Position numbers and translations under genes: made by a program. A stretch of DNA of 64,000 bases from Marsupella aquatica (Eukaryota > Plantae > Marchantiophyta), in assembly GCA_973895155.1 (NCBI GenBank), contig OZ316895.1, positions 10,404,184 to 10,468,183 of the forward strand. The letters run 5' to 3'. The notes below the pieces were generated by a model. The model had not been told where the DNA came from and did not search any database. It was given only the letters and a program-made list of their open reading frames with translations. Every line of letters begins with the position of its first letter. Positions within the stretch are counted from its first letter, which is position 1. Positions 2,955 through 51,373 of the stretch are shown here, in pieces.

Positions 2955-3426
2955 AAATCTTGGTCAACTGCTACATCTCCGTGGCGACAAATTGAGCTCA
3001 AGGGCATTGTTGCAACTATATGAGATCACAGCCTTTTTTAGACAACAGGTGTCTATTGCGCTTCAGCGGACACAGACCTTCACTATTCTTCGTAAAGGAG
3101 AGGCGGTTGGATTCTGGGCATCTAGTCAGATTCACTTGCTTGACACTCCTATGCACTTCACGCCTGAGCTTCACCAGGCTCTTCAATTTGCCAATAGGTA
3201 GACTTTAAGTTTGTGGGTCTTTTGTCTTCCTTGCTCTTGGCTTGTGCCTGGTCCTTTTGCTTTTTGGCCCTTTGCTTTTTGGTCTTTTTCTTGTTCTCCC
3301 TTGATTGGGTTTTTGGTCTCCTGGAGCATGTCTCCTAGGTCAGGTAGTGACCCTTGCTTTTTGGCAGTTTGATTTGATATATATACTATATGTTACTGTA
3401 GAGTTTCATATATATATATATATATA
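2955..3426 (+). mobile_element. 5'-truncated CRE-clade (restriction-like endonuclease) non-LTR retrotransposon remnant ending in (TA)n
   Basis: ORF 2992-3201 reads ITAFFRQQVSIALQRTQTFTILRKGEAVG...LLDTP, matching the FxRQxxSxALQRxxAxxIL tail typical of RLE-type non-LTR ORFs. It is followed by a T-rich 3' UTR and an interrupted (TA)n tract at ~3378-3426. Confidence 0.6.
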
Positions 3427-4175
3427 ATGTGCTGTGAGAATCATGCTATTTTTGGATCAGAGGTCGGAATCCGAAGAATTTCACAGAAAGAGAGCTCTGC
3501 AGAGTGTCAAAATTTGTCCAAATCGCTCGTTCCTTGACATGTTTCTTGCGTGGTAGGTTGTCACAAGCGAGGCATGCAGCAGACTGCATATTGGGTCACC
3601 ATCACTTCACTGTTGGGACAGTACCGCAGCAGCAGGCACGGTATTTCCTGAAGAAAATGAAGCGGTGAAGCTCTACTGACGGGTCACCTTGTCTGACCTA
3701 TTCGGGATCCTAACCCCTAAATTGTAGAGTTCTAACAGGGGGCAGCAGTAAGCCGGAGCTCGGAGTGCCACGAAGAAAACCTGAAAGGAAATCATGGTTC
3801 TTTTAGGATAGAAGGATGTTTTTAATTTGCCAGAACAGCCACCGGGAAGAATTTGATGTTTGTGTCTTGACTTCGGTTGCATGGGATGGGGCTTATGCCT
3901 AGTGACAGGGTTGAGATCCAGATTTATGAAGAAAGTGCGTACAAGACCCGTTTTCGAATGAATTTGCCAGCCGAAGGAGGGGGTGGATTGAATTTGAGGT
4001 GTCGTTCCCAGAGTCTGTTTGTGTGATCCAAGGTTTGCAAGTTACAGCAGAAAGTAGAGAGTCTCTGTTGTTGTTCATCAAGGCGCTGCTGAAACGTCGG
4101 CGCTCTTCATGTTTGGTTTGTGGATTACTACTTTGCAAAAAGAGAGGTAGCGATCCTTTCGTGGAGATCTTTTCC

Positions 4176-13603: not shown

Positions 13604-16380
13604 AATAGCTGACACATACATCTGTCTGCCTCCTTAGTTATAACCGGCTTCTGAGTGTGTTATAGAATCGTCACGACTCACTCTTACTGAAAGCTACCAT
13701 TGTCATCCCTGTGAGAGTCAAGACCACAGTGGCACAGTAAAAGCCTCCAATTTTGCCTTTTTGTGAGTTTCCAAATATACTGGGAACCGATTGTTTCCTA
13801 CGAGTCAGCATAAAATCGCATAGATCTCTGAGAGCTGGAAGGACTGCAGGAAGAAATGTATTATGCTGAACCTTTCTGGTGGAAACCACACCTGTCATAA
13901 GGCGGTTCTGAGTACTTCTCAATAAAACTAGAATCTTTGGGATATTTTTTCACACCTCTATAAGAGGTCCAAGTTTTTGTAATTGGAAGTTCTGGTTTAC
14001 GAGAATTTGGATAATTTCTCTTGGTATTTGTCCCGGGTCAGGTGCATCACTTAGCCTCGGGTGAAAGCAAGACTCTGTACAGCATCTGAGTTTACAAAGG
14101 AGACTGGATGTTAGAGGCGCACTGGTTCCAGAGTTTTGCATCTGGGATGGTATTAGGTTAGTCTATTTTCATCGTTTTGAATCTTGTCCCCCTCGAACAT
14201 AATGTTAAGATGACATGTGGGTTTCTTTCTTCTTTGGGTTAATGGAAAGCATTAATTGATCGGCAGAATGTCAGAGGATACATGAGCATGGTGTCGTCGC
14301 TATTTCATCTTTGTTGGGAATTAGTTTTGCCCCCCAATTGGGCTCTACGGTAGGCTCTATGGGGCTACGAGATCACCAACTTCGCAAATGAGTACTCTCA
14401 TTAGACTGTTCAGTAACTCGTATTCTGCCTTTGCTTCGTCTCTGTACACTACTGAATTGCATATAATTATTAGCAATGATTCAAGGCCTCATTATTTTTA
14501 TAACCTACTGGTCCTACCCAATCGTTGCGTGTGACCAGTCTGTCTACATGTATGGTTGGAAAATGATGTCTGTGTTTCGAGAGTGGGTTGAATGAAGTTC
14601 CAAAAGCAGGGAAGAGGTCAATTTTTTTTTCTTGTCACTCTAGAAGATGAGAGGAACTATAGTGGGAGGTGCTTGCAATCTCTTGGGTGGCTTGTGCAAG
14701 TGCTTGTAAGTCTTGAGAGAGAGGGGAATGAATTGGTAGGGTTTCAAGTGGATTGAATCAATGCGGAGTGCCATGTACAAAGCATCCGTGGATATGCGGG
14801 GTGGCTCTTGCATGCAATAGACCCGATTACAGGTTCCTGAACTCACAGATGCTCTGATTCTTGTCTCCTCTCCATCAGTATTGGGAGATTCTCTGTACTT
14901 GGGATGGTTTTCGAGAGACCTTAATGAATAACGAAGCAACAAATGCAACGTCTTTCCTAACAGAACCAGCCCACTGAAATGATGGATGCTTTCACGCTAG
15001 GCTACTCTTCAACAACACTGGGAGGTTCTTTGTACTTGGGATGAGTGTACAAGATGCTTTTATCAACAAAGCCCAGAACTAATCAATTCTCCTATGACAA
15101 GAAAGCAATGTATTTGTGTTCCACTGTATGACCCCAATCCTAAACTAGATTACAACGTTGGACGTTTTTTACCTGTGGTCGTAGTTTTAATTTGCTATGT
15201 TGTTTTCAGTGAGAAAAATCAAAACCACAAAAAGAAGAAGCAACAGGACAAAACAAAATGCAATGCGGTGGCTAATGCAATGCAGTGCTGAATACTGCAG
15301 CAGCGACAACACAGCAACAACCCGTGGCAAACGCCCCTGCGGTGAGCCCCTGTGGGGAGCCCTCCTATCATGCCTCCGCCAATATTTTGCTCGGGAGGCA
15401 GGCCCGAGGAGCGAGGCCCAATTGAGGCTCGACTATAAGTTAAGCCCAAGGAGCAGGAGGGAGGCAGGCCCAAGGAGCCCCGACGAGGAGCCAGGCCCGA
15501 CTAGCAGGAGCAAGGGAGGAGCACAAGGAGGGAGGGAGGAGTTTCAAATTGCAAGGAGGGAGGAGCGAGGGAGCAGCCAGGCCCCACTCACGATGAGGGA
15601 GAGCTGACTCCCAACGAGGGAGCGCTGCCTGAACTAGCCGCGGCCCCGACTGCAGCCAACAACCGCCTCTCGCCTCCCTCCTGCAGCCCTTCGGTTTGCC
15701 CTCCGTGGCGCTCTGCCTCCCCCCTGGACTCCTTGCCGCCCGACCCTCCGGCCTCCCCTTGCCTTTGCCTGGACTCCTCCCTCCTCCTTGCTTCCCGACC
15801 CTCCGATGTGGTACCTGGACTCGCAGTCCAATGCCCTCGCATTCTGGCCCTTGCGGCACTTGGCCCTACTTTTCTTAACGACTAGCGACGGCCCAAGGAC
15901 GACCTACACACGGGTTTTAGGTCCAGGCATTTTGACCACAAGTTTCAGGTCCAGATGCTTGCTTTAATTCTAACAGGCTTCATGAAACCGAGCCATCCCT
16001 GGACCTAAGTGAACTCATCCCTATGGTTTCAACTCCCCGCTGAGCATCCGCCTTGCCGTGATCACTTGCCACCCCATTTAGAAGTCAAAAATGCATGGGT
16101 TTGGGGCCAAAATATTGGGACAAAATGTGGTCAGGGGGTGGTAGGTCCCCAAAAGTATATATGAGGGGACCATCTCCTCTCAAACATCCAGAGTTGCAAA
16201 CCACACCACCACCCCAAGGGGACATGGTGTTGTCGAGTAAGGAGCTGAGTAAACTTGGATAAGGTTACCAAAGGGGTTCCATGGAAGGGGTAGGAAGAAG
16301 GTTTGTTGAAAAGTGGGCCGAGCAGTGCCGTTGCTCCAAGGGGTCTCGACATTGGGCGGCTGAAGTCCTGTAAGCGGCCA

Positions 16381-16677
16381 CTCGGGGGTCTCACTATGTG
16401 GATGCCTCCTCCATCACCTGAGACGTTTTTAGGCCTCAGACCCCCTAAAATGTAAGAATAAAAAAATAAATTTAACCCTTATAAAGTTGGAATACTCTTG
16501 GAATATTCCCAAAATTTGGTTAGAAAGACCCTTATGTTCTTATAAGTCTCAAAATTGAATTTAAAAGACCCTATTGTTCTTCTGAGAAAATTCTCAAGTC
16601 TTCCCTTCGAACCAATAAAACGACCCTATACTTCGGCCCACGTGATGTGACATTTTTGTGGAAGTGAAACCCTTGAG
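16381..16677 (+). mobile_element. ~290-bp MITE (non-autonomous DNA transposon), copy 1
   Basis: TIRs CTCGGGGGTCTCAC...GTGAAACCCTTGAG; perfect 8-bp TSD AGCGGCCA (16373-16380 and 16678-16685); homologous to three other copies in the window. Confidence 0.9.
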
Positions 16678-16921
16678 AGCGGCCATGGCAACTTTAGTTT
16701 AAAAGCTTAAAGTAACCAAAACTTTGGGTTCCCATTGGGGTTTCAGGATGCAAGGGGTAGGAAAAAGGACTGTTGAAAAGTAGGCCAAGCCATTCCGATT
16801 CTCCAAGGGGCCAAAGCTCAGACCCCTTGGAATGGGGCATGTAATTTTGAATGACTAAATTGAGCTTGGAATGGGGCATGTAAATTTGAATGACTAACAA
16901 TATATGTGCATTGGATGTAGA

Positions 16922-17207
16922 CTTGGGGGTCTCACTATATGGAGGCCTCTCCATCACATGTGACGGTTTTAGGTCTCAAGCCCCCTAAAATGTAAGAAAA
17001 AATATTAATTTTTCTACCCCTATAAAGTTAGAATATTCCAAAATTTTCATTAGAAGGACCCTAATGTTCTTATAAGTCTCAAAAATGGATTTAAAAGACC
17101 TTACTGTTCTTTTGAGAAAATTAGCAAGTCTTCCCTTTGAACCAATAAAATGACCCTATCCTTCGTCGCATGTGATGTGCCATTTTTGTGGAAGTCAAAC
17201 CCCCGAG
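16922..17207 (+). mobile_element. ~290-bp MITE, copy 2
   Basis: TIRs CTTGGGGGTCTCAC...GTCAAACCCCCGAG; 8-bp TSD GATGTAGA/GATGCAGA (1 mismatch). Confidence 0.88.
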
Positions 17208-17589
17208 GATGCAGACAACGGATGGATGAGACTATGGAATAGGCTATGGAGTAATTAGGGGGTTCTTTTGCTGAGGGGACGGTCGCCAACATGCCTCCTC
17301 ACGACCAGGTATTGGCGGCTTGAGGTGAGGGGTACGCCAAAAACAAAGACTCCATAAATCAAAGGCGTCGGGAGAGGTGAGCTCAACATTAGCAACAACA
17401 AAATGGGGTGCCTGGGAATAATGGAGGGGCTGCCAGGGCCCCAATTGATGGGGTTTGGGGATAAGTGAGCGCTCAACCAAACTTGGTTGGGCACGCCAAG
17501 AGTGGGAGACAACTTCATCATGAGGCCAGGCTTGGGGTCAAGGGCAAGCATTGAAATGACCTCGTGCCATTTCCAATAGTTGTGTCGGT

Positions 17590-33019: not shown

Positions 33020-34530
33020 TTCAGTCGCGGAACTCGACTACCTTAACACTTAGCTCCGGCATCGCTGACTCCGACGCCGAGCTCCCTTATGATCCAGGCC
33101 CGGATAGGCCATCCGGGGAGGACTTAGCATGGGGAGACTTGTGGGCAATGAGACGTGGCACTAGCGAGGCAAGGGGCCAAGCTGGGGACACACACTAAGG
33201 ACTTGGACTAGCCTATGGCTGGTTGAGTCAAGGGGAAATGGGCCAGGCTCAAGGGTGGCCGTCCGGACCATCGGATGGGCTTTGAGTTCTGAGGGCTTGG
33301 GAGTGAGCTCCTCTTGGGCCCAAGGCTAATGGAGTTGATGCCATTGGCAACGGACGCTTGGGGCGCAAGTTGTGGCCCCGAGCCGGGTTGGGCCGGCCGG
33401 GGGCCCCAAGCGGCGATCAGACCTGAGGGCCTAGGCATGAGCACTGGGTCGGCCCGGTCACAACGGGCTAAGGCACTCCGCTTGCGGATGCCTATCAAGA
33501 AAGTTATGGGCGTTGCCAGTTGGTGGCGCACCCATCATGCGCGATGTGATCCGGGTTGGGGGCCGAATGTTTAGTGACCAAAGCTGGTCCGAGGGTGGCA
33601 GGTCTCCAGAAGCATATATGAGGGGAGTGGTGTCTCGCTGGGGGCTAAGGGCGAGCCGAAGTCGTGAGCCGCGGCGGTCGCAACACTAAGGGAAACCGTC
33701 AAACGGAAATGGCGATATCTTTCCAACGGGAAGTTCGTTGGAGCACTTCTTAGGTGCATTGGAAAGCTCTTGAGGAAGGCTACGCCCTCCTGAGCTCAGC
33801 TGGGTCTGGGGGTGCCATGGGTTATCGTGGTTTGCGGGTGTTAGCTCACCCGTGTACCAAATCTTGCCGAACAACAGCCAAGCCGCGTTCAGTCTCCCAA
33901 GGGAGCTTGCGTTGGGGAGGCAAGGCCAAGTAGGTATAGAGGCTGAGTCCCAAGAGCGCTCGGTCCCTAGACCATCAGTGGGGCAAACCGGGAGTCGGTG
34001 TTAGAGTCGGGGCTGTTCTGGTCCCGGCGTGTTGAGACAAGCTTGGGACAAGCTTTAGGACAAGCTACGCTATTTGGGCCATGAGCATGTCCTGAGGTCA
34101 GGGCGGTCAGTTGGTGATGGATAGGTACGAGGGGGAACCCGGGCCGCGCCCTAGGAAGGAGCTGTCCTAGACGGACAGTGGGCGTGGGTTCTGGTTCCGG
34201 CTTATGGCAACGGGAGGACCTATCGCTGACCTATTTACCAACGTCTGTTGAGCTTGAGTTAGGATGCTAGACTTGGCGAGTTCTGGATCCGAAGGGGTTA
34301 CTTACCAAGGTGCTTGGTTTTTTGTGCAGACAGTGAGGACCGTTGAGTAGCGGTCATGTAGGTGAGCAAGTGCGGCTTCGTATGGGAGTGGCCGCTGGTG
34401 GTGCTAGAGGCACTTGGATGCTTGCTCGAGGTATTCCGTGGAGGCGTTCGAGCATCAAGGGCACTTAGGCGCAAGTGCTGGGATTGGTGAGGGCGCTGGG
34501 TGGCAAGGTCCACCACTGGTTGTCAGCCTT
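33020..34530 (+). repeat. GC-rich interspersed repeat of unknown class; the first ~300 bp recur in inverted orientation at ~43385-44065
   Basis: GACTACC...TTAGCTCC...GGGGAGACTTGTGG...GGACTT.GACTAGC...GGCCGTCC.GACCA...GAGCTCCTCTTGGG aligns with the reverse complement of 43385-44065 once the solo LTR is removed. The right boundary is approximate. Confidence 0.6.
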
Positions 34531-35537
34531 GGGGGATAATAGTGTTTGCGGTTATTTGTGAAAAATTTAGCTAGTCCCATTATTAGTGTTGGTGATCCAG
34601 AGATGGAGAATCAGGGTGGTGTTAATATCTACTGTGGGGATTTTTGAGGGAAACCTGGAGCGGATGATTATGGTTTCTCGTCGTAATTATGGTTTCAACT
34701 GATCAATGGGTGATGGAAGAGCTTCATCTAAATTCCTCTCCAGACCTATGAAAGTTTGTACAAAGTCATTCTGAATCGTTGGTTTGGTTCCTATCTTGGG
34801 GAATAGTTGGATTTTAGTGTTAGTGCTGGTTCTTTGCAATTGGTTCATCCACTAAGGATGTTTGCTAGTGGAGAGTCACTGACTCAGATCTTTACACTGG
34901 ATCTCTTCCTATACTCTGGACTGAGTTTTTAGCCCTCACTTTTGCGGTAATTGTTTAGTTGGTTCCCCTTGGGTGTGTGATGTGTTGTCAACTTGCACCT
35001 GTAGTTGTGTTTTTCTTCCTTTCCCTCTTAATAACTTGTTTGGTCTTTGAGTGGTTTGTGGGTTTTTGACCTTTTGGGGGTCTGGCTTGTGACTCCCAGT
35101 TTCTATTGGGTTTCCTTTTTGTACAAGTAAAGTGCTCCTTTCAAGAAAAAATAGCACTATGCTGTGCATATTTGTGTGTACTCAAAAAGGTACTAATAAA
35201 AAAAATGTATTTATAAGGGAACATGTAAGAGAGGTTTGTATACTAGGGAAATAATGACTGAATACTAATAGCGTCATTAGAGACTAGCAGTATTTATTAT
35301 TACCATAAGATAATGTGTGCCTACTAATGTCTGTAACATCATTCACATATCAGTGTTTACATATGTTCATGACTAAACATCGTCAATTAGTTACTTCAAG
35401 ATATAAGTGTTTAGCACATTATGTAGTCAAATATAATGGGGGGAAGTAAACCCTAAAAAATTTCAGTGCATTCACTGTGACCCTCTCCTAGCGTACCCGC
35501 TTACGGTAACAAAATGCGATCCAATAGAAGGAACAAC

Positions 35538-35716
35538 GAGAGATATGCTTAGTAGACTCCCATCTGGAAAAAGTTTGCTTAATCAACCCCCTCTATACTT
35601 TTCTCCAATCTGGACCATTGATGGACCTTTCGATCTCAGATCTGGACCATTGATAGACCTCAGGGGGTAGATCAAGTAACAAGTTTCATATTGGGGGTTG
35701 ATCAAGCAAATACCTC
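35538..35716. mobile_element. Small Mutator-type MITE
   Basis: GAG...CTC termini; internal inverted repeat TTTGCTT(A/G)ATCAACCCCC; perfect 10-bp TSD AAGGAACAAC (35528-35537 and 35717-35726). Confidence 0.8.
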
Positions 35717-36349
35717 AAGGAACAACATATAATCATTTGTGAATCTGCAATGGCTCTGGTCCTTGGTTTGAAACGATGCAAGAAACCATTTACCACGTAA
35801 GATCGTCATACTTCCGCATTTAAAGAGGCATTCCGCATTTAAAGAGGCAAGCGATGGCAGAGCTTAAAGGGAGGCAAGGTGCAGAAAGGAATCGAGGGAG
35901 GAGGGCTGAAAGGCGTGATCACTGTGGGAGGGAGATCGTTGAGTAGACGGCATATGAGCGAGGCATCTGTGAGTAAAGGGGCAGTTCAAGTTTCATCGTT
36001 GTGGTTGGAGTTGAGGTCGTAGTGAGCTTTGGAAATCGTTTACAGATTGTCTTAAGCTCTGTGGGTGTTGTTGTTGGTTCGTTACGCAGCAGGCTGCAGG
36101 ATCTTTTTCGGTTTGATATTTTTTCCTCTTTCGGGTTGTTGCTTTTGAGTATGTTCTGTTCGGGGTTTTGTGAGAGCCGGTGACAGTGAGGGTTTCTGCG
36201 GGGAATTGTGATTTCTTGTGTTTGATGTCGCTGCTTATGCCTATGTCATGAGTTTCTCTGCCTGCTGATTCCAGCTTTTAGCGGGTGCGGAGGTTGGCAT
36301 TGCGGGCCGTGTTTCTGAAATTTTTGATCTTTTCTGTAGGGTTGCCTTA

Positions 36350-39300
36350 CGGTTTTTCCTTGAACGTATGTGATGGCAGTCGAGGATTGTTTGGTAGCAG
36401 TCGAGAAATGGGTCTGGCATTTCTGTTGTTTCTTTTCCTGTCCTTGGTGACCTGTCGAGTCGGCTTCTCATCTTCATTAGGTTTATCATTTGAAATACAA
36501 ATCTTTGTCTTCCTCTATGGCAAGGATGAGCGTTGGCCTCTCCTCTCTGTATGTAGAACAATCGTTAGCAATTAACTTGTTACAGAGGGAGATAAAATTT
36601 GTCCGTCAGCTCCACGGTTGTTGACATCATCTTCAGTGTCTTCTAAATCTTCAAATTTGTCGCCTCTCAAGGGGTTCCTCTCTCATGTATGTTCGAGGAC
36701 CGGGGTTCCTGCATGGCTTGGTGCTGAGCTTGTTAATCTACTACTGAGAACATCGGCCTCGTTGTCTCCTAAACCGTCACTATCCTCTAAGTCAACAGTG
36801 TTCGTTCTTCCCCTAGGAAGTTCATTTTCCACTGGGTCCCCGCTAGTGGTTCCACCCTGGCCTGGGGGTTGTGCACACTGCTCATCATCCTTGAACCTGA
36901 ACACCCGAAATCATCATGGGCAATTCAACTCAGCTACGTTCAGAACCATAAATATCGCTACTCTTAACTTCATCCACAACACATCAAATGGGACCTAAGG
37001 TCTTGGCGTCTGCGGAATTCGGCCTCATTACCGTGAACTCTGCAAAGGAACTTAAACGAACTATCACCTGAAGTTTTGCCACGGCTTTGAGAAAATAAAA
37101 TGTGCTCTCACAAACTGCAGGCTAGTGGACCTAAACGTACTTTACGACTGTGAACAAGAATCTGTGCCATTCAGATGACGGCAGAAAAAGCCATCGTCGC
37201 TGCCAAACGCCTGCTGAACAAATTCTAAAATTTACACAGCATTAAAGGAGCACTTCAGAAATTTAGAGTAGAATTTGAATGTGGACTTCGGCCAAGCTCG
37301 AATCATCCTCCGACACACCAGGATGTCACGATCGCCTTACCTTTTAAACAATTCCTTGATCTGCACCACATGATCTTCAGATAACGGAATGATGGCTTCT
37401 GCATCTTCATCCTCACTCGATGAGGCAGACCTTCAAAAGTCGCACGGAAAACAATTGTGTTTACTACTTGGAGCCTCTTCAGTCTCGGACCACTGTAACC
37501 AAGACTCTCCCACTGGAAATCGTTGCTTTGAGTTCCAATTGAACTCATTCAGTTTGTTTCCTTAAGGCATGCTTCAGAGAGAACTCCATTTGAGTGCATA
37601 ACATCTCCTACCTAATATGATGCAATGTGCACAGTACTTCCAGCCGTAACCTTTCAAATGAATAGCAGAGCAACGTCAGTGAAAGACTGGCAAACGCTAA
37701 ATTCAACTTACTCTTCATTATCACTGTGCCGGTTTGTCGGTGCGTCTTCTTCATCGTGACCCAAAGCATCTGCAATGTTAATTTTTTTCCTGTTTTGAGA
37801 GGAGCCACCTGCCTCTTTCCGCATGGATTGTATCATATAATCAGCAGTAATGTGGTGACATTCTGACCGTGTCTTCCAGAACAGAATGTCTACAAACAAA
37901 ATTGGGTGCGCCTCCAGCTTCTTGAAGAGCCGGCGTATTACTTTGCTTACAAAACCAATGACATGTCTGTGATCCTGTGCTGATTGCAGCTGCTCATTGC
38001 AGAGAATACTATAGAATGTCTGGAGAATCGAAATCTGCAGAGGCAACATGCTTGTTTTACGTCATGTGTACTATCATCCCGCACAATGCGTTCTAGTTTG
38101 ACTATTTTGAACTATGGCTTAATCGTCTCGAAAAAATATCGAAACAGCAATATGACTGTTTATTCAATTTTGTGCTACTGATAAAATCAAGCACTAGCAT
38201 TGTGGACATATTCTAAGAAACAATCTACACGCTGAGAAATAATTTCAATACCTTCCACGGCTCCTGAGGAAAAACTTTGAATGATAATAATCAGCAGAAA
38301 CCGATTAAAAACGTAGTATGCATAAAGGGGGCTGATTAGTAGTTGGGACCTGATACAGCATGGGCTCGAGATGGCAGTCTTCACAGATGCGTTGCAGCAT
38401 GCGCACAATGTAGTGGTTGGTTGCAGCCCTGTTGGTTGAGTGGAACTTCAAGAGCCAACAGCAGTTTTTAACAACAAAGTTGTTTGCAAACTTATCCACA
38501 ACTTTTCGGATGTTTAAGGTCACCTCCTTCGTCCTATTCTGCTTCCCGCCATCTGAATCATCACCGTCGTCATCAGCAACTGGAGAAGTATGAATTGTTT
38601 CAACTTCTTCGTCCTGCTGATGAGAGCCAGCGGCACTTTTCTTTGGCAGATCCATCTCAGACTGGTCCCCCGTACGTTCATCACTGTCTGCCACATTTTC
38701 TGCGACTCCTTCGTCACCTGACCTCTCTGGCTCTACATCTGATGTGGAGATATTATATTAGCGCGCTTGGGGGAATGGGGAACATCTATGTCACTTTTCG
38801 AGGCTTGCTCATCTACTTTAGCCTCCGTGGCATCCTCTTCTGCTCCTTCGGATTGGGATTGTTCAGAGGGCTTTGGTTTCTTTTTCCAACCTCCTCTTAC
38901 TTTGGTCAAAACCTAAAAACGAAATTCACAGTTCAATTCATCTCATAGTCATCAAAAGGTCAGCTGATGATAAATTTGTCGAAAATTCTGACGAAAATAA
39001 ATCTAGGGGCACTTTAATGCAGAACACCCAAAAGAAGTGGCGCAAAAATCAGCCAAGATTGAATACTAGTACAGATTAGAGAATTGCTCTGAAGAGTGGC
39101 TTACCGGAAGAGACTCCCCGGACTTGGCGAAACTATCAAGGATGCGGAGGACGATGTGCGTGATCTCCACTAGATCGGCCAAGTGACTGCAATCAGTCAT
39201 CACCAACTCATAATTTGCTTCTCTGAAAACAACTCCACCTCATGTGCGACTCGAAGCTTAAGTCTGTCCATGAGCTAAGTGTCTACAGCAAGATGGTCGT

Positions 39301-40170
39301 GCCCTCGCTATCAACAAACCAGACTTAAAGTTCAGGACTATACCTCCGGGGGTGCTTGGAGGTGTCAAACGACCTGATCAGCGAATTCAGGAACTAGAGA
39401 ACGTCAAAGTTAACCTGGTGGTAGAAAATTTGATATAGTAGGGTGCGTGCCGTGCGACGTTCCTGCTGCCCTTCTCTTGTAAGACTGCCCGACCTTTTAA
39501 GGACAAGATCCAGCATTTTTATCAGTGTAGTTGCTCCGTCATCAGAATCACATAAAGAGGAACATTGAGACAACCTTAGCTGTAACTGAAAGCCTCCTCA
39601 GCACACGTTAAGTTCCTTAGTAGTCTCATGAACCTTACGATCACTAATCGTAGTATTAGGAAAATGTGTTTCATCATGACCAGTAACAGGATTCGTGCTC
39701 CTGACTATCCATAACCTGAAACAATGGACGCAAAAAAAGGGAAATCCTCTGAAAGTGGGTTTCTATGCTCTGGTGAGACGAATTGAATGTGGATGATACA
39801 AACTTTGAAGGTTAATAAAAACACCTTTGAAGGGTACTGAAGGCACAAAAAAAATCCTATACATTACAGGCTTCTCGTTTCCTGAGTATGATACTCTTGA
39901 CAAAATCAGCTGCTACCGAAAACCTAGGAACGATCTATCAGGCACATGCGGCGCAAACTCTTTACGAACCATGTCCTTTATAACACCCCCCTGCAGCTCC
40001 CCAGGGTTTCCAATCTTTGGTTTCCGCTGCAGAATCTGCAAACTCTTGCCATTTTGAAGTCACCATCTTGAACATAGCTTCGTCCATAGTTGAGGCGATC
40101 AGGCCACAAAGATGCTTTCGTGCTGCTGCTTTCTTCTCTGCTCCATCCAGAGAGCCATCATTTGATTTGA
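36350..40170 (-). pseudogene. TIM: TIMELESS (ATIM, fork-protection complex) pseudogene, 5'-truncated, introns retained
   Basis: Exon peptides LCGLIASTMDEAMFKMVTSKW, IKMLDLVL...ARTLLYQIFY...FLNSLIRSFD, FANNFVVKNCCWLLKF...NHYIVRMLQRICED..LEPMLYQ, LFVDILFWKTRSECHHITADY and IKELFKR|FKDDEQC resemble plant TIMELESS. Lesions: an extra G at ~39986-39991, an acceptor reading TG at ~39523, in-frame TAG at ~39394-39396, and further stops at 36683-36685 and 36572-36574. The left end is approximate. Confidence 0.85.
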
Positions 40171-40414
40171 CCTGGTGCTTCTTCACAGACATAAGAACGG
40201 CAACTTCAATAAATGCTCGCCATGTTTACATAATCACTCTCGTAACGGATAGGTTTCATTTCAACGAAGGAAAAAACAAAGCTCGAAAGACAGTTATACT
40301 CGAGATGTGGCATGATCTGCCATTTGACATTGTGAAGAGCTCACACATTCAAAGACCTTGCTGTTGTGGAATTCAGCCACAAGCTGCAGTGACAGGCCCT
40401 GAACTTGTTCCAGT

Positions 40415-42460
40415 TTAATTACACCGACGACCGGCTCTCCCAGATTCTTGATGGAAGCTTTTAAGCGACCTGAAACTGCCCCGATGAATCACAAGCCTGA
40501 CCCATTTATAATTGTATCCAGAGCTGATCACTCCAGTTGCCAGCATGATTTTAGGAGCACCTGACGTCCAAGACCTCACTGAAACCCTCTTCACTGCTAT
40601 GTCTAGATGTGCATCCATATACACACGTTGCAGTCCTTTTTCTTGGAGGGTTCCTGCCATAGATTCCACCTCATTGCGGGTCATACAAAATACCAATGCC
40701 CTCTCTTCTGGCAAAGAATATGCTTCCCAATCTTGGAGAAGATGAAGTATTTCTCCATTCATCATGTTATGGCCAGCCGCAGCTGGGCCTCACAGTTGGA
40801 CAACGGATCCACCCCATCTCTGTTGCTAACATCAGCTCCACATGAACTTGATTATGTGGTGCTAGGGATGCAGTCAACCCTATGATTTGACAGGGGATTG
40901 AAGGATGGGAAGCAATTGTTTCATTGCTGGTCGGAAGTCAGATAATAGGAGGTGGACCTCGTCAAAGATGATGGAATGCAAGGCACCACTGCATTTCAAT
41001 TGCTTTGCTAAGATGATGAATTGTTCGGATTTAACTGCAATCTCCATAGCCACAAAAATGATCGAAGGTGGGTTCCCCACTTCAACTACAACATCTGGAT
41101 ACACAACACAAATAATATTTGCTTGTCTGCATTCCTCTAGGTGACCCTCTACTAGTATAGTGAGTGGAACAACCACAATCACTGTCCTATTTGGTCTAAT
41201 GGTGGAAGGTGCCATGAATACCAATGATTTCCCAGACCCAGTGGGCAGTATAGCAACAAAATCCACCACATTGTCCACAGATAAAGCAACGACTGTTGCT
41301 TGTTCCACAGATTTCCAATCCTTATTGCCAAGCCTCCTTAGGGGCATGGCAAGCTCCAGTTGTTTTATCAAGATTAACTTGTAGTAATAAATCACTTTCT
41401 TCACCTGTCGATTGTGTCTCATGGATGTTTGAGTGATAAACTGTAAACTGTCTCCTTGTTGGGAGCCGTCTCACCTCATATTCAACACCTCCAATAGGTC
41501 CCATAAAATCAAAAGGTGCCAGGAATTACATCCGGCCTTTCTGACCGAGTGAGACCAAGCAACTTGTGCCACAATTGTGACACCAGTACACATCCTCTTA
41601 GAAGATGTCCATCCATGCCTCTGGGATCCTTTGTACTGCAAGCATAGTGATGGCTTATTGTAGCTATCGCATGACCACCTGTTGCATCCACAAGGTCCTC
41701 TTGTAAGTAGGCCTTACATGCTTGTATGTTCTCACTCCAATGTGCTGCTATATGCCGGTACTTTGCAATCCCAAATGGAACACCACAATGCTTTTGGAAA
41801 GCATCTTTTACACTAGCTGAAAGATTCCTATGAGCCTCTTGTCCATGACCACAAACCAACAATCCAGGTACATCATTGCCACTTTGGGACCCCACAAAAT
41901 GTTTGCCACAAAAGGCTGTACAGGGCGAACCAGACAAAGCATTTTTAAGAATAGGTGGCTTTGAGTGTTGGGAATGAACCGGGCAGTGAGGTTTATAGGT
42001 TTCCCAGCATTAGCACATTTGTGATAGGATTGGTAAATCATCAGTGCATCAGATAACCAAATGAATGCTCTCTCCCCAGTAGGGGTGACTGTTGCCCCGA
42101 CTGTTGCAGATTAACAAGCTCGAGTATTCTTCCCCTCTTGCTAGTAGTCCTGCACAAAAATGTAAAAGCAAATTCAATTCAGTAGCTTTTGCATGGGCTT
42201 CTGTAGCTTGGAACATGTGGCCATCCACTTGTGAAGTGATGTCTGGTTCCAGATAATTTCATTCCTATCATCACCCCCCCCCTCTCTTCGTAATATGAAA
42301 TTTGTCATCGTCACATGTGGGATTACTAAACTTGTGGTTGAGTAGATCCCTCCCATATTGTTGAAATTCTGGATTACTTGTATCTGTGAGAAAGGAATAA
42401 TGCAATTTGTCTGTCTGGTTAGCATCATGTATAGAGCCCTTGGTGCTGACCATATGGTCT
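40415..42460 (-). mobile_element. Degenerate ORF: tyrosine-recombinase-like domain fused to a RecQ-type SF2 helicase (telomere-linked helicase-like)
   Basis: Helicase motifs across frameshifts: LPTGSGKS, VVVPLTIL, IIFDEVH, GLTASL, ALVFC, MLATGVISSGYN, VRLVIH, HQESGRAGR. Upstream: HYSFLTDTSN, LLLHFCAGLLARGEEYSSL, YHK, RFIP..LVRP, IAKYRHIA, GGHAIATISHHYA, SQLWHKLLG. Confidence 0.75.
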
Positions 42461-43019
42461 ATCCATTTTGTTTCAAGACCAAAGAGACAACATGATAATT
42501 ACGTAGAAGACTCATCACTCTCATCATTTTCAGAAGAATTGATGTCCACCACATTCTTTGAGGCTTCATTGTCTTTGGACTGTTCAAGCAACACCGTTGC
42601 CAACCTCATTCTTGTTATGAAAATCAAAATTAAGAATAGCATGGAGTCTATCTTGTTTCTTAATCCCCACCTATTTATGGGTGGAGTCGATGATTGTTGA
42701 AGCTTCCTTGTTCTCTGTGAGACCAAAGAAGACTTTGGTTGCAGTATCCAAAAACTCCTTTTGATTTTCAATTTCAACAATAAACAGACCACAATAATCT
42801 TTGACAACATATGTACTATCGGACCAGAGTGTCCAGTCCATCTAAAACTGTAGACCTACATAAAACCAACAGGAGTTTGCAAATTTCCAGCAAATTCAAG
42901 ATCTTGATTGGAGGGTTTATTAAAGCGGGCAAACCAATGAGGTTTGTAATGGAAGGGTCCTATGTATTTGAAAGCGGTCAAAATTTGGGGTCCTTGGGAC
43001 CCTTTTCTTTAGAGGAAAC

Positions 43020-43322
43020 CTTGGGTCCTCACTTCTTTTCTTTTGACCCATCATGCATGAAGAAGTTAGGTTTTTTTAATTCAATTGGGCAGAAGACTTG
43101 AAAAAAATTGATGAAGAAAATAGGGGTGTTTCAACCTAATTTTGAGAATTATGAGAACTATATGGGTATTTTAATATAGAATTTGAAAATATTCCTAGAA
43201 TATTCCATAAATTAGGGGTTATAATTAATAAAAATCTACTTAGTTTTTTAAATTTTTAGGGTGTTTATTACTTGAAAATTTTACGTGTGATATGGAATCT
43301 CCCTTGGAGTGAGCCCCCCAAT
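43020..43322 (-). mobile_element. ~300-bp MITE, copy 3 (most diverged)
   Basis: Colinear with the copy at 44690-44981; perfect 8-bp TSD GAGGAAAC (43012-43019 and 43323-43330). Confidence 0.8.
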
Positions 43323-43525
43323 GAGGAAACCCAGAACAAAACATTAAGCGTAAGAGTGAACATCCTGCAGAAAGAATTTTTTATCCACTCAATATCACCC
43401 AAGAGGAGCTCTCACTCAAGCCTTCAAAACTCAGAGTTCATTTTGTGGTCTGGACGGCCGATCCACTCTAAGCTCGGCTCTTTCCATGACCCGACCAGCT
43501 CCCAACGCTAGTCTAAGTCCTTTGT

Positions 43526-43872
43526 TGTTAAACATTTACTCTTAGTCTAGTGTTACAACTATAAGTGTAGTTAGGACTTACCTTAGTCGTGGACTAGATT
43601 GGGTTAACTAGGTTGCACACTATATCCCAAATGGTGTTTGCTTGGATAGCACAAACTCAAGCTCAATGTTTCGGAGCTAGATGAGAGATAGGGAGATCTT
43701 GTATTGGGGAGACTCGTATGGCCAACGGGCCTAGAGTGCAGTAAAGCTCTCGCGTGTTCTCATGGACGTAGCCTCAAGCTGAGGTGAACCACGTATATAT
43801 CTTTTTGTGTTGACAACTTGCGCGTTGGATGGTTCATGGGCTTGCCGTTGTGAATGTTGTCTATGCTCAACA
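43526..43872 (+). mobile_element. Solo LTR (Ty1/copia-like), 347 bp
   Basis: TGTT...AACA termini; 5-bp TSD TTTGT (43521-43525 and 43873-43877); contains GGACGTAG...GAACCACGTA, a motif common in plant copia LTRs; splits the inverted copy of the 33-kb repeat. Confidence 0.8.
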
Positions 43873-44689
43873 TTTGTCTGCGTCACCAGCTAAGTACCGC
43901 ATTGCCTTTGCTAGTGCATTACTTTCCACAAGTCTCCCCTTACTTAGTCCCCACCAGATAGCCATTTCAATTTGAGCCCAATTCCGGGGGCCTAGACCAG
44001 AGAGGAGCTTGATGTCAAAGACAGCAACGCTGGAGCTAAATGGTAGGGTAGTCAAGTTTTGTGACTACATTACTTTAACTCAAAGCAAATTACCAGTCAA
44101 TAGTGTCTCTTTTATTTGAATAGGTTAGTACAAGCCAGAAAGGAGGGAAATTTCTTCTTAATAGTGCCAGATGCTAATAATCCAAATATCAGTTGGACGG
44201 AGTTGATCCATTTAATCTGCAAGAGTAGCCCTAGATGCCCCCGCAGGCACTAGTTCTCAAAGATGGAATTGACCAAAGAAGATCCCAAATGAATTTGCTT
44301 GTACTTTGAGATTGCTTGCAACCTTTGATACTTCTTAAAAACTGATATTGCACTACAAAGGCCATGACATGTGGAGTAAATATGAAATAGCATTGGGCAC
44401 TACTATTTCAAGAATGTACATTGATTATCATATCTGAGCAGACATCCAAGAGAGATCGTGTGGAGATTGTTGAACAAATACTTTCACATCACTTTATTTG
44501 TATGGTACATCTCTTACACTTAATAACACTGTCCATCTTATGTTGTAGAGCAAGAATGTAGAGGAGCTGGAATGGTTCCGAATTGCACTGGTTTGGAGTC
44601 AATGCATGCAAGCATGAAAGCATGGCAAATGAAGAAGCGGGTTGGCCTCTACGAGGGATGTAAAATAGACCAACATGGGGCCATATGTC

Positions 44690-44981
44690 CTCGGGGGTTT
44701 CACTTTCACAAAAATGTCATATCACGTGCAACGAAATATAGGGTCATTTTATTGGTTCGAAGGGAAGACTTAAGAATTTTCTGAGAAGAACAATAGGGTC
44801 TTTTAAATTCAATTTTGGGACTTATAAGAACATTAGGGTCCTTATAACCAAAATTTTGTTCTCAGAATATTCCAACTTTATAGGGGTCAAAAAATTAATT
44901 TTTTTTCTTACATTTTAGGGGGTCCCAGGCCTAAAAATGTCGCAGGCAATGGGGAGACATCCATATAGTGAGACCCTCGAG
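44690..44981 (-). mobile_element. ~290-bp MITE, copy 4
   Basis: Reverse complement of copies 1 and 2; TIRs CTCGGGGGTTTCAC...GTGAGACCCTCGAG; perfect 8-bp TSD CATATGTC (44682-44689 and 44982-44989). Confidence 0.9.
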
Positions 44982-44989
44982 CATATGTC

Positions 44990-45700
44990 AGATTGTAGCT
45001 TATACGGCATACCCAAGGACATATATACCAAAGAGGATTAAATAGAGGAACTGGACCCACTATTTTTGAGTTGGCTTTGAGATGTGCGGACATGGTTGCG
45101 TCTCCACATCTATTGGAGGAAACAACAAATTAATCTCATTCTTTCCAACGCAACTGAATTTGATTTGGAAAGAACCGTTCCATTGAATGGAGATCTGAAA
45201 ACTCGATTGGTGAGAAAAACGGGAACAAAAAGAACATGCCATTGAGAATGTCTCAACACAAGACTCTCACAGGCATGATATTATTCCTTGTGACTTCACC
45301 AATTGAAATATGAGAGGTTTGAAGAGGAGAAACATGAATTCCACTTATTTCAAGAAAGATGTCTTCCATGCCTTCCATCGGTGGAAATGACATTTTTAAT
45401 TTGTTGCAAAGTGAAGATTTTGAAGAAGACATAGTCTTGGAGACAACCTTTCATCAAATAACAAGATTGTCTATGCCTGCAGTCACCCGTGTAGATAGGA
45501 TGTACCAAGTCTGAAGAATGTCATTCAATTTCCCCTATGGAAAGTTATATAGCTCCAAGGGCTTGGAATCTATGTCAAACCTCAAAACATGGTGCGGGGC
45601 CTGCTTGCAATGGAACCCTTGGATGGAGAGGAAGTCGAAATCAAGTCAAGAAGATCAAGTGGATATGATTAATGTTAGGGCCAAACCGGAGATGATGTAG
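44990..45700 (-). mobile_element. Highly degenerate LINE (L1-like) ORF2 3' remnant
   Basis: Broken translation ...RWKAWK...SCVETFSMACSFCSRFS...W loosely resembles the C-terminal zinc-knuckle region of L1 ORF2; many stops. Confidence 0.3.
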
Positions 45701-46174
45701 ATAAGTCACTTAGTTACACATTGTGTATCACCCAACTCATTGATGTGACAACTGAGATCAAGGTGAAGATTATTAGGATTTGACTCAAGTTCCTAATTTT
45801 AGTTAGCTTGGCCTTGTTAGGGTTACTTCACCCTTGACTACATGAAAAAAATATCCATTTAGATTAAGTCCACACATCTCATTATTCACATGTACTCTCA
45901 TATACTATGGATCATTTAGGAGTTCCTCAACTTGTGGTGTCTCATCCGTGTAACGTGTGATCGAGTGTCTTTATCATGGTCTGCATTAATTTGCTATCTA
46001 GTCTGAGCTGAAAATTTCTCACCCAGGTATTTTACTACAATTTTACAAATAACAAAAGTAAAATGAAGTGAATTAGCTAGAAGTAGGGAAGAGCAAAGTT
46101 CAACTAACCAATTACTGATGTTTCTTGCTAGAAAACTACTAGCAAATTTCAGATTGTCGGCATCTGGTGGATTT

Positions 46175-46770
46175 CTACCCTCTGTAATTTTCTAGATGGA
46201 AGCAACAACAATGCAAGGTTGTGATCAAGATCATCAAAGGGCCAGTTTTGTAGATTTGGTTCTCTACCATGCGTTGAGTGGTGACCTCAATATCAAAATT
46301 CTCCTGCATATTCTCACCCCATATGAAATCCTGAAGCTCACCCTCAGGAATCCAAGCATAATCCTTTTTTTGACCCAAACCACTCAATAACAGTGTATTC
46401 AAATTCTTTGGGAGGAGGTATCTGAGTTTTGTCACATCTGGAATAGTCACTATGGCTTTTGCATGAGGTAGGAGTTTTCAGTGGCATGGAATTTTGTCGT
46501 TGAACATTGGATCATCGTTGAATGTCAGGTCATGCACATGCTGTCGGATGCCATCCAATGCATCTGCTACATCCCCTTTTGGTGTCAGTAGTGAACTGCA
46601 ATTCAGGTATTGCTTCATACTTTGTGTATTTGTGGAAATTTGCTTCCATTCTTGAATGTGGCAATGCTTTGTTGCAAAAAAGCATCGGACATTGGCATAG
46701 GGTGGATTGGAAGCATTGCGTAAAGCTTCCAAGTATGGAAGTTCAGACACAGATGTCGTAGACATGACAC
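46175..46770 (-). mobile_element. Degenerate MULE/SWIM-type transposase N-terminal fragment (At1g60560-like)
   Basis: YAWIPEGELQDFIWGE...HCCCFHLENY resembles the recalled motif AxIPxxRVDDFIxGE...YWCSFGPENY of plant SWIM/MULE-derived proteins; in-frame stop at ~46478. Confidence 0.55.
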
Positions 46771-48598
46771 ACACGAGTACAATGTTCCCAAAAATTAGCA
46801 CGAGGTCACAGCACGCAACACACAGCAAAACATGAATCACAAACTCCTAAATCACAACATGCCATTCCTGATTGACACTAAGGAGTGCCAGGGAATGTGC
46901 AAGACGCCTTACATTCCCTCCATGAAATGGGTTTAGGACACTCTCCACAGTACATATGTTTCTCTTTGTCAAATCCAATCCTGCTCAAAAAGGGATTTAT
47001 GATTGACACAATACTCACAAAAATTGAATGCATACACAGCATGTGTTGTGTCGCTAAAGTATTAGGGGGTCTCAAAATTAGGGCCGGGTCATCCTGTCGC
47101 GGAATGACCCTCATGTCGGTAAGTGTGACCGCAGGCTCATTTCACAGACCTGAATTTTGTTGGGTTTTAACTTTTTGACACACCGGGATACTAGTGTTCC
47201 GCTCTCCTGTCAAAAAACCACACAGTGGCATGTGTGCCCATCGAAAAACCCCGCGGTGACAGTGTGCAGACCTGCCCTGGGGGCTGCCGCACACCTTCAC
47301 AGCCACGTCCGCCCGAACCTAACTCGGACTGCCGGGAAAGAAGCCACAACATATATTTGAGTCTCCCTATTCTAACACCCTCTGAGTACACAAAGGCCAT
47401 CCGGGCGACTACGTCCAAGGTAGCGACCCGAGACGGCTTGGCCGGTGAGGCGAAAGTCGGCCCGGGTCTGGTGGCAGGGACTTGGGGGACTCTAAAATAG
47501 GGACAGCCCGGTGGTGTTCTTTGGGACAGGCTCCCCTAGCGCAAAGGATCACGCTGGCCGAAAGGGTCACGAACTGCCCAAATTTACTGGCCAACCTGTA
47601 AAGCCCTGCGCCCTTACTGTAAAGCATCCAGATTGATGCATTAATGTGCATCCGTTTGCGCTGGATAAAAATTAAAATCAGTCCCTCCTTTTCAATGCTT
47701 CAAGTACTGAAGGGTGCGAAAACAATTATGCCCCAAGGACAAAAAACCGTGCCAAGAGTTCTTTCCCTCGTTTTGTCGAAACATCCATCATTACTCTGCA
47801 GATAATTAGTTAATTACATGCCCTGCCAATTATATCAAGGCTCACACATATTTGCTCCAAGTTCATGGGAGTGTAAATTTTTTGCTGAATTCCAATCTCG
47901 TATCACTTTCGAAGACGTCAAAGAATGCGGAGCATCTCCACCAGACCACCAGTAGTTCACGATTGTGGGAAGCTATGGGGATAGCTGCTCTGCACACGAT
48001 TGTCCCACAATCCTTGAATCCGCCCACCAAAGTGAATTCTCAACGTAGCTGTTGATTCTCTGTTTCACTCAACAACCCCACCGAGGCACCGAGTGACAAG
48101 TGAAATTGGCGAATTTTCACATCGATACTCGCGCAAAGATGCCTGCAGAATGTGGCACTTTCCACGTGGTGTGACAGACTTGTTTGCATGGCGGTTGTGC
48201 GAGACACCTGGTCAGTTCAAATGGTCGTCTTCTCATAGCTTGACAAGTCAGTGAGGTCGGAATGATACGGGAATTGTTGGGACTGTAGAACTGACGGTAT
48301 CTCCTGGACTACTACTGGTGCGTTCTCTACCAGTCCCCAGCAACCAGAAGCATGCAGCTCAGCAGAGCCGCTCGCTAGGTGAGAAAACCAGGTTGGCACG
48401 TACTGATGTGGGAGTGGGAAAAGGTCATGGAGGATGCCCGAGGAAGGAATGCGCCTTCACCGGGATTGAAGAGGACCTCTCCAATCCCGAATTGATCAAT
48501 GAGGAAGGAGGAATTTCAATAGAACTTTTGGATTGAGGTTTGGTGGGGCGGTGCTCCAGCATCGGCAGCGGCAGCAGCAGCAGCCGCAGCTTTGAAAC

Positions 48599-51373
48599 AT
48601 GGAGAAGGGAAGGAGGAAGGTGAAGCACAGAGTGCCACTGAAGGCCTTGGCCCGAGTGGCAAGTGTTGCTGCTGGAGTGCAATTCGGATGGGCACTGCAG
48701 CTTTCGTTGTTGACACCGTATGTGCAGGAGCTCGGAATCCCTCATCAGTATGCCAGTTTGATATGGCTCTGTGGCCCCATCTCTGGCATGTTTGTGCAGC
48801 CAATCATCGGCCACTACAGTGACGTCTGCACCAGCTCCTATGGAAGACGCCGACCGTTCATCGTTGTGGGAGCTTTCCTCGTTATTGTCTCTGTCTTGAC
48901 AATTGGGTACTCGGCCGATATTGGATACCTGATTGGGGACACTCTTGCGTCCAAGCCTCGGGCCATCATAATCTTCGTGTTTGGGTTCTGGCTTCTGGAT
49001 TTGGCGAATAACACTCTGCAAGGTCCCTGCCGTGCATTGCTGGCAGATTACGCAGGTAGAACTCTCATTCCTCCTCTAATATCCCTGGCCTTGGCTTGGA
49101 TACATAAGTCCTTCAAGTACTGTGAAGGAATGAGTTGATTAGGATGTTGAACCTTGTGATTTGTGCAGACTGACCATGATGTCTTATTCTATCTATATAG
49201 CTTATCACGTTCTGCGTAAGACAGGCTAGTTGGTACTGTAGGGAGTCTCAGGCAGATGCTGAGGAGATGGGAATGATTACTAGTTGTATGATATGTTGAA
49301 ACGACATGTTTTGTTGAATCTCAAAAGTACCCCATCGCTGATTGCCATTTGTCAAGCAAATTTCGATTGGTGTTGAGGTCTTTCCCCCCCCTGTAGAATG
49401 ATTCCTTGCGGAATGTTGTAACTGCTCCAACTACCCCTTACCATGGGTCATGAAATTCGAGAGCAGTCCGTTCATCTCCGTTCATCTGTCTGACAATTTT
49501 AGAGTCTATGGTTCAGGCAAAGATCAAGGACGAACGAGGCGAGCGAATGCATTCTTCTCCCTCTTCATGGCTGTGGGCAACATTTTGGGATTCGCTACGG
49601 GTGCTTACGACAATTGGGGAAAGATCCTTGGTTTCACATTAACCGAGGCTTGTGATAACCCTTGCGCAAACTTGAAGTCTGCCTTCATCTTGGGTATCTT
49701 TGTTCTGACCATTACCACCATTCTGAGTGTGACCGCCGCCCAAGAGATTCCTTGGAGCCCCGACACAAGCAAATCTCACGCACACGCCAACAATGCCGCT
49801 GCTGCCCCTTTGCTGGCTGACAAGCCTCTGAATGGGCAAAGTGCAGGCGAGGTTTCCAAGGCCGAGGATCCAGAAGATGATGATGAGGATGACGAGCAAG
49901 TCTCTGAGGCTCTCTTCTGGGAGCTAGTTGTCGCACTGAGAGACCTTCCTCGGACAATGTGGTACATCCTTTTGGTTACCGCTCTCACATGGCTGGCGTG
50001 GTTCCCTTTCCTTCTCTTCGATACAGATTGGATGGGCCGTGAAGTGTACCAAGGAGAGCTCACAGGAAACGACACGGATAGGCTCTCTCAATTGTACTAT
50101 GCTGGAGTTCACATGGGTTCACTGGGCCTCATGCTGAACTCTGTGGTATTAGGTATCACTTCTTTACTGATTGATGTCATGTGCCGGAAGCTTGGACCGA
50201 GCCGAGTTTGGGGTTTGAGTAATGCTATCTTGGCCGTGTGTTTCGCATGCACTGCCATTATTGCTATGGCTGCGAAAGGGGCATCTCGTCATGAAGGCTA
50301 TACAGGACCTTCTAATTTTGTCATTGCTGCGGCACTTGCTGTGTTCGCTGCTCTTGGAGTGCCTCTTGCGGTAAGCTCACCTGTATCTTCAATGAGAGGT
50401 TCTGATGAGTTTTCGCCATCAATGCAATGCGAGTTCCTGAGGAATGCTTCTCTTTTGCATTCAGTCTACAGTAATTTCAGTGAACAACTAATATACTAAA
50501 TCAGGTCCATTGATTCCATAAACACCAAAAGATACCTAAGGTAGATTGTGAGTTTATTCGCAGTGATCAAGGTACTCCACTGCATCAAAATGAATATTAG
50601 TGCTGTTTGCAGTCGGTTCTTTCACGACTAAACGAAGTTTCTCAATTCGTGAAATCTGTCCAATGTTGTTTGCCAACCTTTTGTCTGTGTCCCCGGTGGT
50701 AATGATGCAGGTCACTTACAGTGTTCCATATGCACTTACTGCGAGCTATGCAGAAAAGTCTGGAGGAGGACAAGGTACAGTTGCAAAATGTTTAGAGGAT
50801 TAATGTTAAGTTGTCACCTTAATACATTGGGTTTCATACATGTTTGAAGCCATTAGATTGTTACCCTTGTGCTTGCCCTCAGAGTTTACTTGGATTGAGG
50901 TGATAAGCGTAGGTTCAGAGGAAACTGCGCTCAGCTAACTCGGTCCGAAGCTTCTCTTTGGTCTATCATAGTTTCTGTTGGATCTTGATTAATTGGGTTA
51001 CGAGGTGCTGTGCTGTTCTTCCACACAATGATCGCGATCACGATCATGGGTAATTGAATGTGAGCACCAAAACAGCTATGATGACAGTTAGTTGAAAAAT
51101 CATTTCATTTGGTAACTGAAGCTGTTGCTTGGACTTGCAGGTCTTTCCATGGGCGTGTTGAATCTTGCTGTTGTTATTCCTCAGATGCTCGTATCAATAG
51201 GAAGCGGGCCTTTTGATGCATTATTTGGCGGAGGGAATTTGCCGTCTTTCATCTTGGGCGCCGTGTCAGCATTAATAGGAGGTATTGCTGCAGTTCTCAT
51301 CCTTCCACGGCCTCCACCTGGCTTCAAATCTAGTGGAGGTTTGAGGCGTACGAGGAGTTCTCCAATTGCGTGA
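48599..51373 (+). CDS. SUT4: Sucrose-proton symporter, SUT4/SUC4 (type III)-like, 4 exons
   Basis: Motifs [88 protein letters not shown] and GQG|[15 protein letters not shown]. Exons 48599-49055, 49517-50370, 50711-50774, 51141-51373. Confidence 0.95.

Follow-up and report, generated by a model that had tools for sequence, protein, structure and literature searches.

A decayed telomere-linked helicase family gene with a predicted tyrosine-recombinase domain in the liverwort Marsupella aquatica

The relic and its genomic setting

The window, that is, the whole stretch of 64,000 nucleotides of Marsupella aquatica contig OZ316895.1 that was analysed (positions 10,404,184 to 10,468,183), is a eukaryotic region of spliced genes. 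It contains the relic of a gene of the telomere-linked helicase (TLH) family, which lies on the minus strand at 42486-40427, carries eight frameshifts and is truncated at both ends (Table 1). The relic is interstitial, with host genes on both sides. The repeats upstream of it are outside the element as far as shown; very high-copy repeats at 33023-34517 and ~42900-46000, which end sharply at the shared positions 33023, 34517 and 43872, are probably retrotransposon terminal repeats, and the segment 44690-44980 resembles 16380-17209. Two open frames directly downstream of the relic (39965-40225 and 38308-38757, minus strand) are protein-like and match no Pfam family. No telomere-repeat array is present in the 64-kb window (one match with two mismatches, 0.48 expected), no convincing terminal repeats are seen in 34000-49000, and no Rfam family is matched in 36000-47500.

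The entire locus, relic included, also exists in a second version that is 92-95% alike and has single-copy depth, which indicates that the insertion is old. For the part of the window at 36000-50000, runs X1, X3 and X4 hold two locus versions (one exact, the other ~92-95%) at similar depth, which would fit allopolyploidy or an old segmental duplication, and run X5 (word share 0.09) holds the diverged version only. No target-site duplication or empty site is seen for the relic, and in four runs no contig joins its two flanks directly.

Table 1. Features of the window and candidate catalytic residues of the relic
Feature	Position	Strand	Remarks
Listerin/LTN1 E3 ligase host gene, multi-exon	~6288-12892	+	PF22999, 1.7e-27 on 12317-12889
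RecQ-like SF2 helicase core, motifs I-VI	40427..41335	-	LPTGSGKS 41225-41248, DEVH 40952-40963, LTASL 40863-40877, QESGRAGR 40427-40450; frameshifts near 40897, 40780
Variable linker	41336..41541	-	Frameshifts near 41514, 41357
TLH middle region with tyrosine-recombinase-like domain	41542..42486	-	Matches P0006 residues 194-516; frameshifts near 42312, 42202, 42096, 41824
First catalytic Arg candidate	42136..42138	-	P0006 R300; R in 138/139; registers with XerD R148, Cre R173
Catalytic Lys candidate	42018..42020	-	P0006 K355; 139/139; registers with Cre K201 (non-significant alignment), not XerD K172
Second catalytic Arg candidate	41755..41757	-	P0006 R445; 137/139; registers with XerD R247
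His/Trp-position His candidate	41671..41673	-	P0006 H473; 137/139; registers with XerD H270
Nucleophile Tyr candidate	41644..41646	-	P0006 Y482; 139/139; 9 residues past His, as XerD H270-Y279
High-copy repeat(s) upstream of relic	42900..46000		Summed depth thousands to >100,000 versus ~70-100 in unique DNA
Presumed sucrose-transporter-like host gene	48596-50499	+	Named from its motifs; MFS_1 match weak
Two short ORFs with ZZ-type zinc finger	60356-61730	+	PF00569, 1e-4 and 0.024

The nearest relative of the relic is P0006, a 1097-residue protein of the liverwort Calypogeia fissa. In a frameshift-aware alignment of the two, the pieces of the relic are collinear with P0006 and 293 of 623 aligned residues are identical (47%). 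A preliminary description of this DNA had joined the frameshifted minus-strand pieces into one reading frame with SF2/RecQ motifs, extending over 40415..42460 and with no introns evident. The joined frame is confirmed by this collinearity and by Pfam matches of two helicase pieces (DEAD, 2e-12; Helicase_C, 2e-13), and the alignment runs without intron-sized gaps. The location also holds, but the upstream limit has to be moved, as homology begins at ~42486-42489. Over the recombinase-like part, the alignment with P0006 scores 641, compared with 28-36 for eight shuffles. A search with the frame 41512-42009 alone, within which the reading frame switches midway, returned no homologue among 282 candidates.

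The six frameshifts of the middle region and the linker are located by the frameshift-aware alignment; the two further ones flank motif III, where P0006 is gapped, and stops in the alignment are confined to this gap. The best reading of the relic has the eight frameshifts and no in-frame stop, which is odd for an old dead copy. Contigs from three runs show no differences to the window over the breaks or parts of them, and one contig of run X1, which covers 40371-43200, is identical to the window. This agreement of independent runs indicates that the breaks are real and rules out sequencing or assembly error as their cause. The zinc-finger region, in the N-terminal third of the family protein, is missing from the relic, and its sequence ends abruptly after motif VI, whereas copies of a sister family described below read on past 40440/40427. 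Its CpG o/e ratio is 0.27, and that of four other regions of the window is 0.42-0.68.

All of the helicase motifs named earlier are in place in the relic. The likeness to host plant RECQ genes is that RecQ-family HMMs are the best NCBIfam matches of the helicase, far under the cut-off. The relic differs from these genes in having no introns, in carrying a fused upstream domain, and in reading DEVHLLLSDFR at the place of the aromatic loop of canonical RecQ (DEAHCxSQWGHDFR), with SQWGH absent. WG occurs at this loop in only 1 of 49 proteins with a readable pattern, among which E. coli RecQ is included. The helicase shares 24% of its residues with E. coli RecQ, compared with 41-45% with the closest family members, and E. 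coli RecQ ranks 80th of 129 matches to the helicase. The missing loop, the low identity to E. coli RecQ and the fused domain lead us to reject a host RECQ pseudogene, in agreement with the earlier view that this is not a host plant RECQ.

Relatives of the relic and the TLH layout

When 1.84 billion representatives were searched with a profile, 834 proteins matched at E <= 1e-30; the count of 9916 at 1e-3 is inflated by the helicase part of the profile. The best 150 of these matches were used; among the 152 proteins examined, 148 match the middle domain and 139 cover it, and P0006 residues ~230-510 are conserved across these 139 relatives. A helicase motif is found in 108 of the 113 relatives that have more than 250 residues downstream of the domain. 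Pfam scans of 22 relatives detect OrsD/DUF3505 in 18, DEAD in 19 and a recombinase family in none (E <= 0.01), and OrsD is present in all three N-terminal moss ORFs tested. Full-length relatives are composed of OrsD/C2H2 fingers, the conserved middle domain and a RecQ-like helicase.

The published TLH layout, in the part of the account that was available, comprises two C2H2 motifs, a 250-residue "TLH domain" and RecQ motifs (10.1101/2024.02.27.582403), and OrsD/DUF3505 is reported in subtelomeric helicases in the available portions of two further papers (10.1101/2023.02.05.527183; PMC5576322). Judged by its layout and by the position and size of the domain, set beside these descriptions, the relic is a TLH-family gene. 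The likeness to fungal TLH proteins that had been proposed in the preliminary description is thus upheld by the fingers, ~250-residue domain and helicase of the relatives, the N-terminal fingers being missing from the truncated relic itself.

The fungal and Monosiga TLH genes (M. oryzae TLH1, S. pombe tlh1/2 and F. oxysporum TLH) have the same C2H2/OrsD fingers, ~250-residue domain and RecQ-like helicase as the intact relatives, and the likeness extends to multiple copies with many broken paralogues. The present case differs in its plant host, in an interstitial copy without telomere repeats, and in the predicted tyrosine recombinase, whereas the published accounts, in their available parts, assign no function to the TLH domain. 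No published account that links TLH genes to a recombinase was found, with subscription papers, the 2009 TLH-motif paper, bioRxiv supplements and Repbase outside the scope of the search; the available part of PMC7074392, which contains "telomere-linked", RecQ and recombinase, draws no such link.

In an unrooted FastTree of 145 mostly unlabelled rows, the window copy is sister to the Calypogeia protein (98) and the Sphagnum copies form a separate branch; both plant branches fall into a 15-row clade (97) together with seven unlabelled rows. The three named relatives, of 20 looked up, are agaricomycete hypothetical proteins and lie outside this clade. Horizontal acquisition from fungi, which had been suggested earlier, is not borne out by this unrooted tree, in which the two separate plant branches decide neither way.

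Candidate catalytic residues and predicted fold of the middle domain

The five residues that had been proposed as a catalytic set, namely R in ARGEE, K in YHK, R in KYRH, H in GGH and Y in HHY, are all found in the relic where they had been placed. Each belongs to the seven most conserved columns of the 139 relatives, being kept in 137-139 of them, at ~20-40% identity. These columns are Y482, K355, R300, R317, H473, R445 and E303 in P0006 numbering, and the window retains all seven. The first His of HxxR is an Ala in the window and is variable across the family, so that five of the six positions of the R-K-(H)xxR-H/W-Y set are near-invariant but the first His is not conserved. Starship captains are also variable at this His, yet transpose, according to the available part of PMC10104507. 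Profile alignments in which four of the residues fall on the corresponding residues of XerD (E 0.09; reversed control, E 0.46) and two on those of Cre (E 0.25) are non-significant. Pfam, NCBIfam, PHROGs and PDB sequence searches identify no recombinase family, and DUF3504, DUF3435 and NDC10_II have no Pfam match in five proteins (E <= 1) or in the 22 relatives (E <= 0.01).

The evidence on the fold comes from a model in which the Calypogeia relative stands in for the relic. The AlphaFold2 model of P0006 residues 127-517, based on 108 alignment rows, has a pLDDT of 88.4 and a pTM of 0.89; an earlier model from an 8-row alignment (pLDDT 45) was discarded. Comparison of the model with 48,161 solved chains by VIA-align reveals XerA 4a8e as the best match (Z 10.2, rmsd 3.1, 164 aligned), followed by XerH (Z 9.3), XerA (8.9), XerD (8.6) and Cre (8.1), and then by integrases, topoisomerases IB (Z 6.1-7.4), the non-catalytic Ndc10 (Z 6.2) and Flp. 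We take all of ranks 1-26 to be members of the tyrosine-recombinase/topoisomerase IB superfamily, and the first clearly unrelated chain is at rank 27 (Z 4.8). The protelomerase TelA has a Z of 3.9 against the model. A Foldseek search returns no match at E <= 0.001 in the PDB (Cre, E 0.66) or in viral structure libraries, where the top matches are non-significant and are the brown-algal virus proteins Feldmannia B5LWN9 (E 0.007, TM 0.41) and FirrV-1-B4. In the Atlas, P0006 residues 230-520 are closest to mostly ascomycete clusters (0.97), and a phage-integrase cluster at 0.87 is a lead only. The tyrosine-recombinase fold postulated at the outset is therefore favoured by the VIA-align Z of 10.2 on a model with pLDDT 88, whereas the Foldseek and profile comparisons are non-significant. 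Taken with the residues, the model suggests that the TLH middle domain is probably a tyrosine recombinase, with a predicted catalytic function.

The likeness to the Xer and Cre recombinases consists of the best fold matches and of R, R, H and Y in XerD register. The family domain differs from them in its large insertions, in the first His, in the extra invariant residues E303/N311/R317 and in the fusion to zinc fingers and a helicase, and shares no significant sequence similarity with them. Crypton and Starship elements are likewise recombinase-encoding DNA elements without a DDE transposase, the tolerance of variation at the first His being a further likeness to the captains; a fusion to a RecQ helicase is not known for their recombinases. 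Their short direct repeats are not found at the relic, both ends of which are truncated. AcademH and KolobokH resemble the present family as DNA elements with an SF2/RecQ-type helicase, and they use a DDE transposase and terminal inverted repeats, neither of which is seen in the relic (its ends being lost) or in the scanned relatives. The Pfam results agree with the earlier view that the relic is distinct from Cryptons, Starship captains and DDE-type elements, as no such family is matched in its relatives. The word "helicase" is absent from the available part of the text of PMC13465315.

Copies of the family, rival explanations and a possible mobile element

In runs X3 and X5, the depth of the relic at 85% stringency is close to that of single-copy DNA. 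At 80% stringency, a sister family with 83-86% nucleotide identity to the relic is observed in runs of three studies, in unitigs of 5814 (X1), 2188 (X3) and 5872 bases (X5). The depths of these unitigs (106.9, 555 and 67.9) compare with ~17.5, 43 and 5 for neighbouring unique pieces and correspond to 6.1x, 12.9x and 13.6x single-copy depth, unitig depth being a rough estimate of copy number in runs of mostly unrecorded type. In run X4, the sister family is present in short, very deep fragments, with summed depths of 1000-5000 versus ~45. The combination of long unitigs and high depth indicates that the sister copies are near-identical. Their net indels fit one open frame in 6/6 aligned pieces and 5/5 local checks, as judged from indels alone among the rows listed, and the reading frame of the sister family is apparently unbroken, the frameshifts of the relic being cancelled by indels. 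Two of the breaks in the relic correspond to 16 and 17 surplus bases relative to a sister copy.

In the moss Sphagnum jensenii, copies of the family lie on at least three large scaffolds, and moss metagenome loci belong to the same family. These 20 loci, derived from 152 pattern matches in one metagenome scan and including repeated loci (L004/L005 and L006/L009/L011), represent numerous copies that are 77-95% alike and have unrelated flanks. Stops are present in 20/20 loci and a telomere-type dimer at only 1/20, and the five candidate residues are kept in 16/19, 18/19, 20/20 (part of the search pattern), 18/19 and 19/20 of them. The dN/dS ratios were obtained from 13 loci, seven duplicate or short ones having been dropped, and the pairs are not independent: deep pairs (dS > 0.4) have medians of 0.17 in the recombinase domain and 0.15 in the helicase, and shallow pairs (dS <= 0.25) have medians of 0.45-0.47. 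On these ratios, the moss family shows strong selection between subfamilies with individual copies dead, as in transposons. Two independent moss copies (L004:975 and L019:343) have a sharp common boundary located ~3 kb upstream of the reading frame; outside it the DNA is unrelated. This boundary is possibly the element end but may be the end of another repeat. The 3' ends of the moss copies are ragged in seven loci.

The multi-copy behaviour implied by the preliminary description is thus observed twice, in the sister family at ~6-14x depth in runs that hold the window and in the many copies in moss, which derive from selected progenitors. We assign a probability of about 0.55 to the reading that the relic is a dead, doubly truncated TLH-family copy, that the middle domain is a predicted active tyrosine recombinase, and that the family spreads as a selfish element. 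The earlier idea of a decayed protein from a self-mobile recombinase-plus-helicase element is retained as to decay and multiple copies, whereas no ends, target site or empty site were found.

The main rival, which appears unlikely, is the passive spread of a subtelomeric or telomere gene that serves the host in telomere rescue, a role reported for fission yeast tlh: copies would move between chromosome ends by ectopic recombination, the domain would resolve or rejoin ends in a protelomerase-like manner, and the window copy would be an accidental internal leftover of an old end or a repair event. Near-identical sister copies numbering ~6-14 are compatible with a place at chromosome ends, and the failure to find element ends or a target site is also in its favour, but the moss copies, with their number, divergence, unrelated flanks and single telomere-type dimer, do not fit it, and neither do copies that are all dead while their progenitors are selected. 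The low Z of TelA relative to that of Xer (10.2) further argues against a protelomerase-like role. In the available parts of the literature, TLH genes flank most Fusarium chromosome ends and are induced in S. pombe telomere crisis (10.1101/2024.02.27.582403), and all 11 TLH copies of Magnaporthe strain 70-15 are near telomeres, although Magnaporthe ends without TLH are stable (PMC1635262).

It is more doubtful still that the domain acts as a topoisomerase-IB-like swivel or nickase for the helicase, rather than as a site-specific recombinase, and that the family spreads via break-induced replication. The set R-K-R-H-Y is common to tyrosine recombinases and topoisomerases IB, which counts for this explanation, as do the lack of a conserved first His in HxxR and the presence of topoisomerases IB in the same fold list; however, Xer and Cre score 2-3 Z units above the topoisomerases, Starship captains transpose despite the same variation, and the upstream boundary of the two moss copies is sharp and common to both. 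Least probable is that the sister family resides in a plasmid-like or organellar extrachromosomal element, or in an associated organism, and that the window fragment was captured from there: the depth ratio does vary by run (~6x, 13x and 14x, and the summed depths in X4), but the sister family recurs above host single-copy depth in the runs of three studies and has 83-86% identity to a copy on a plant chromosome. Relatives lie on Sphagnum scaffolds of chromosome scale and on a Calypogeia contig of 285 kb, and none was found among viral contigs.

If the family is a selfish mobile element, the zinc fingers may bind the end of the element, and the recombinase domain would cut DNA via a 3'-phosphotyrosine link and join the element end to the target; alternatively, a circle may be released, a route proposed for Cryptons and reported for Starships. 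Unwinding or branch migration of the junction would then fall to the fused 3'-5' helicase, with the result that the element is copied and does not simply change place. Copies would accumulate at chromosome ends in fungi, whereas in bryophytes many would insert inside chromosomes and decay under methylation, as the window copy may have done long ago.

The presence of TLH genes at fungal chromosome ends has been known for more than 20 years, with no function assigned to the TLH domain. More tentatively than the reading of the relic itself, and at somewhat less than even odds, TLH genes may drive an unrecognised superfamily of DNA transposons in eukaryotes. Its members would carry a tyrosine recombinase and a RecQ helicase on a single polypeptide and would copy themselves by recombinase-initiated, helicase-driven replication; fungi, protists and land plants would all be hosts, and this plant would still carry a young, frame-intact, recently amplified family. 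The frame-intact, multi-copy sister family would in that case be a candidate live element. The liverwort and moss copies, annotated solely as helicases, extend the TLH family to land plants, and a recombinase active site may explain why TLH genes multiply and sit at chromosome ends, which would recast them as probable selfish elements.
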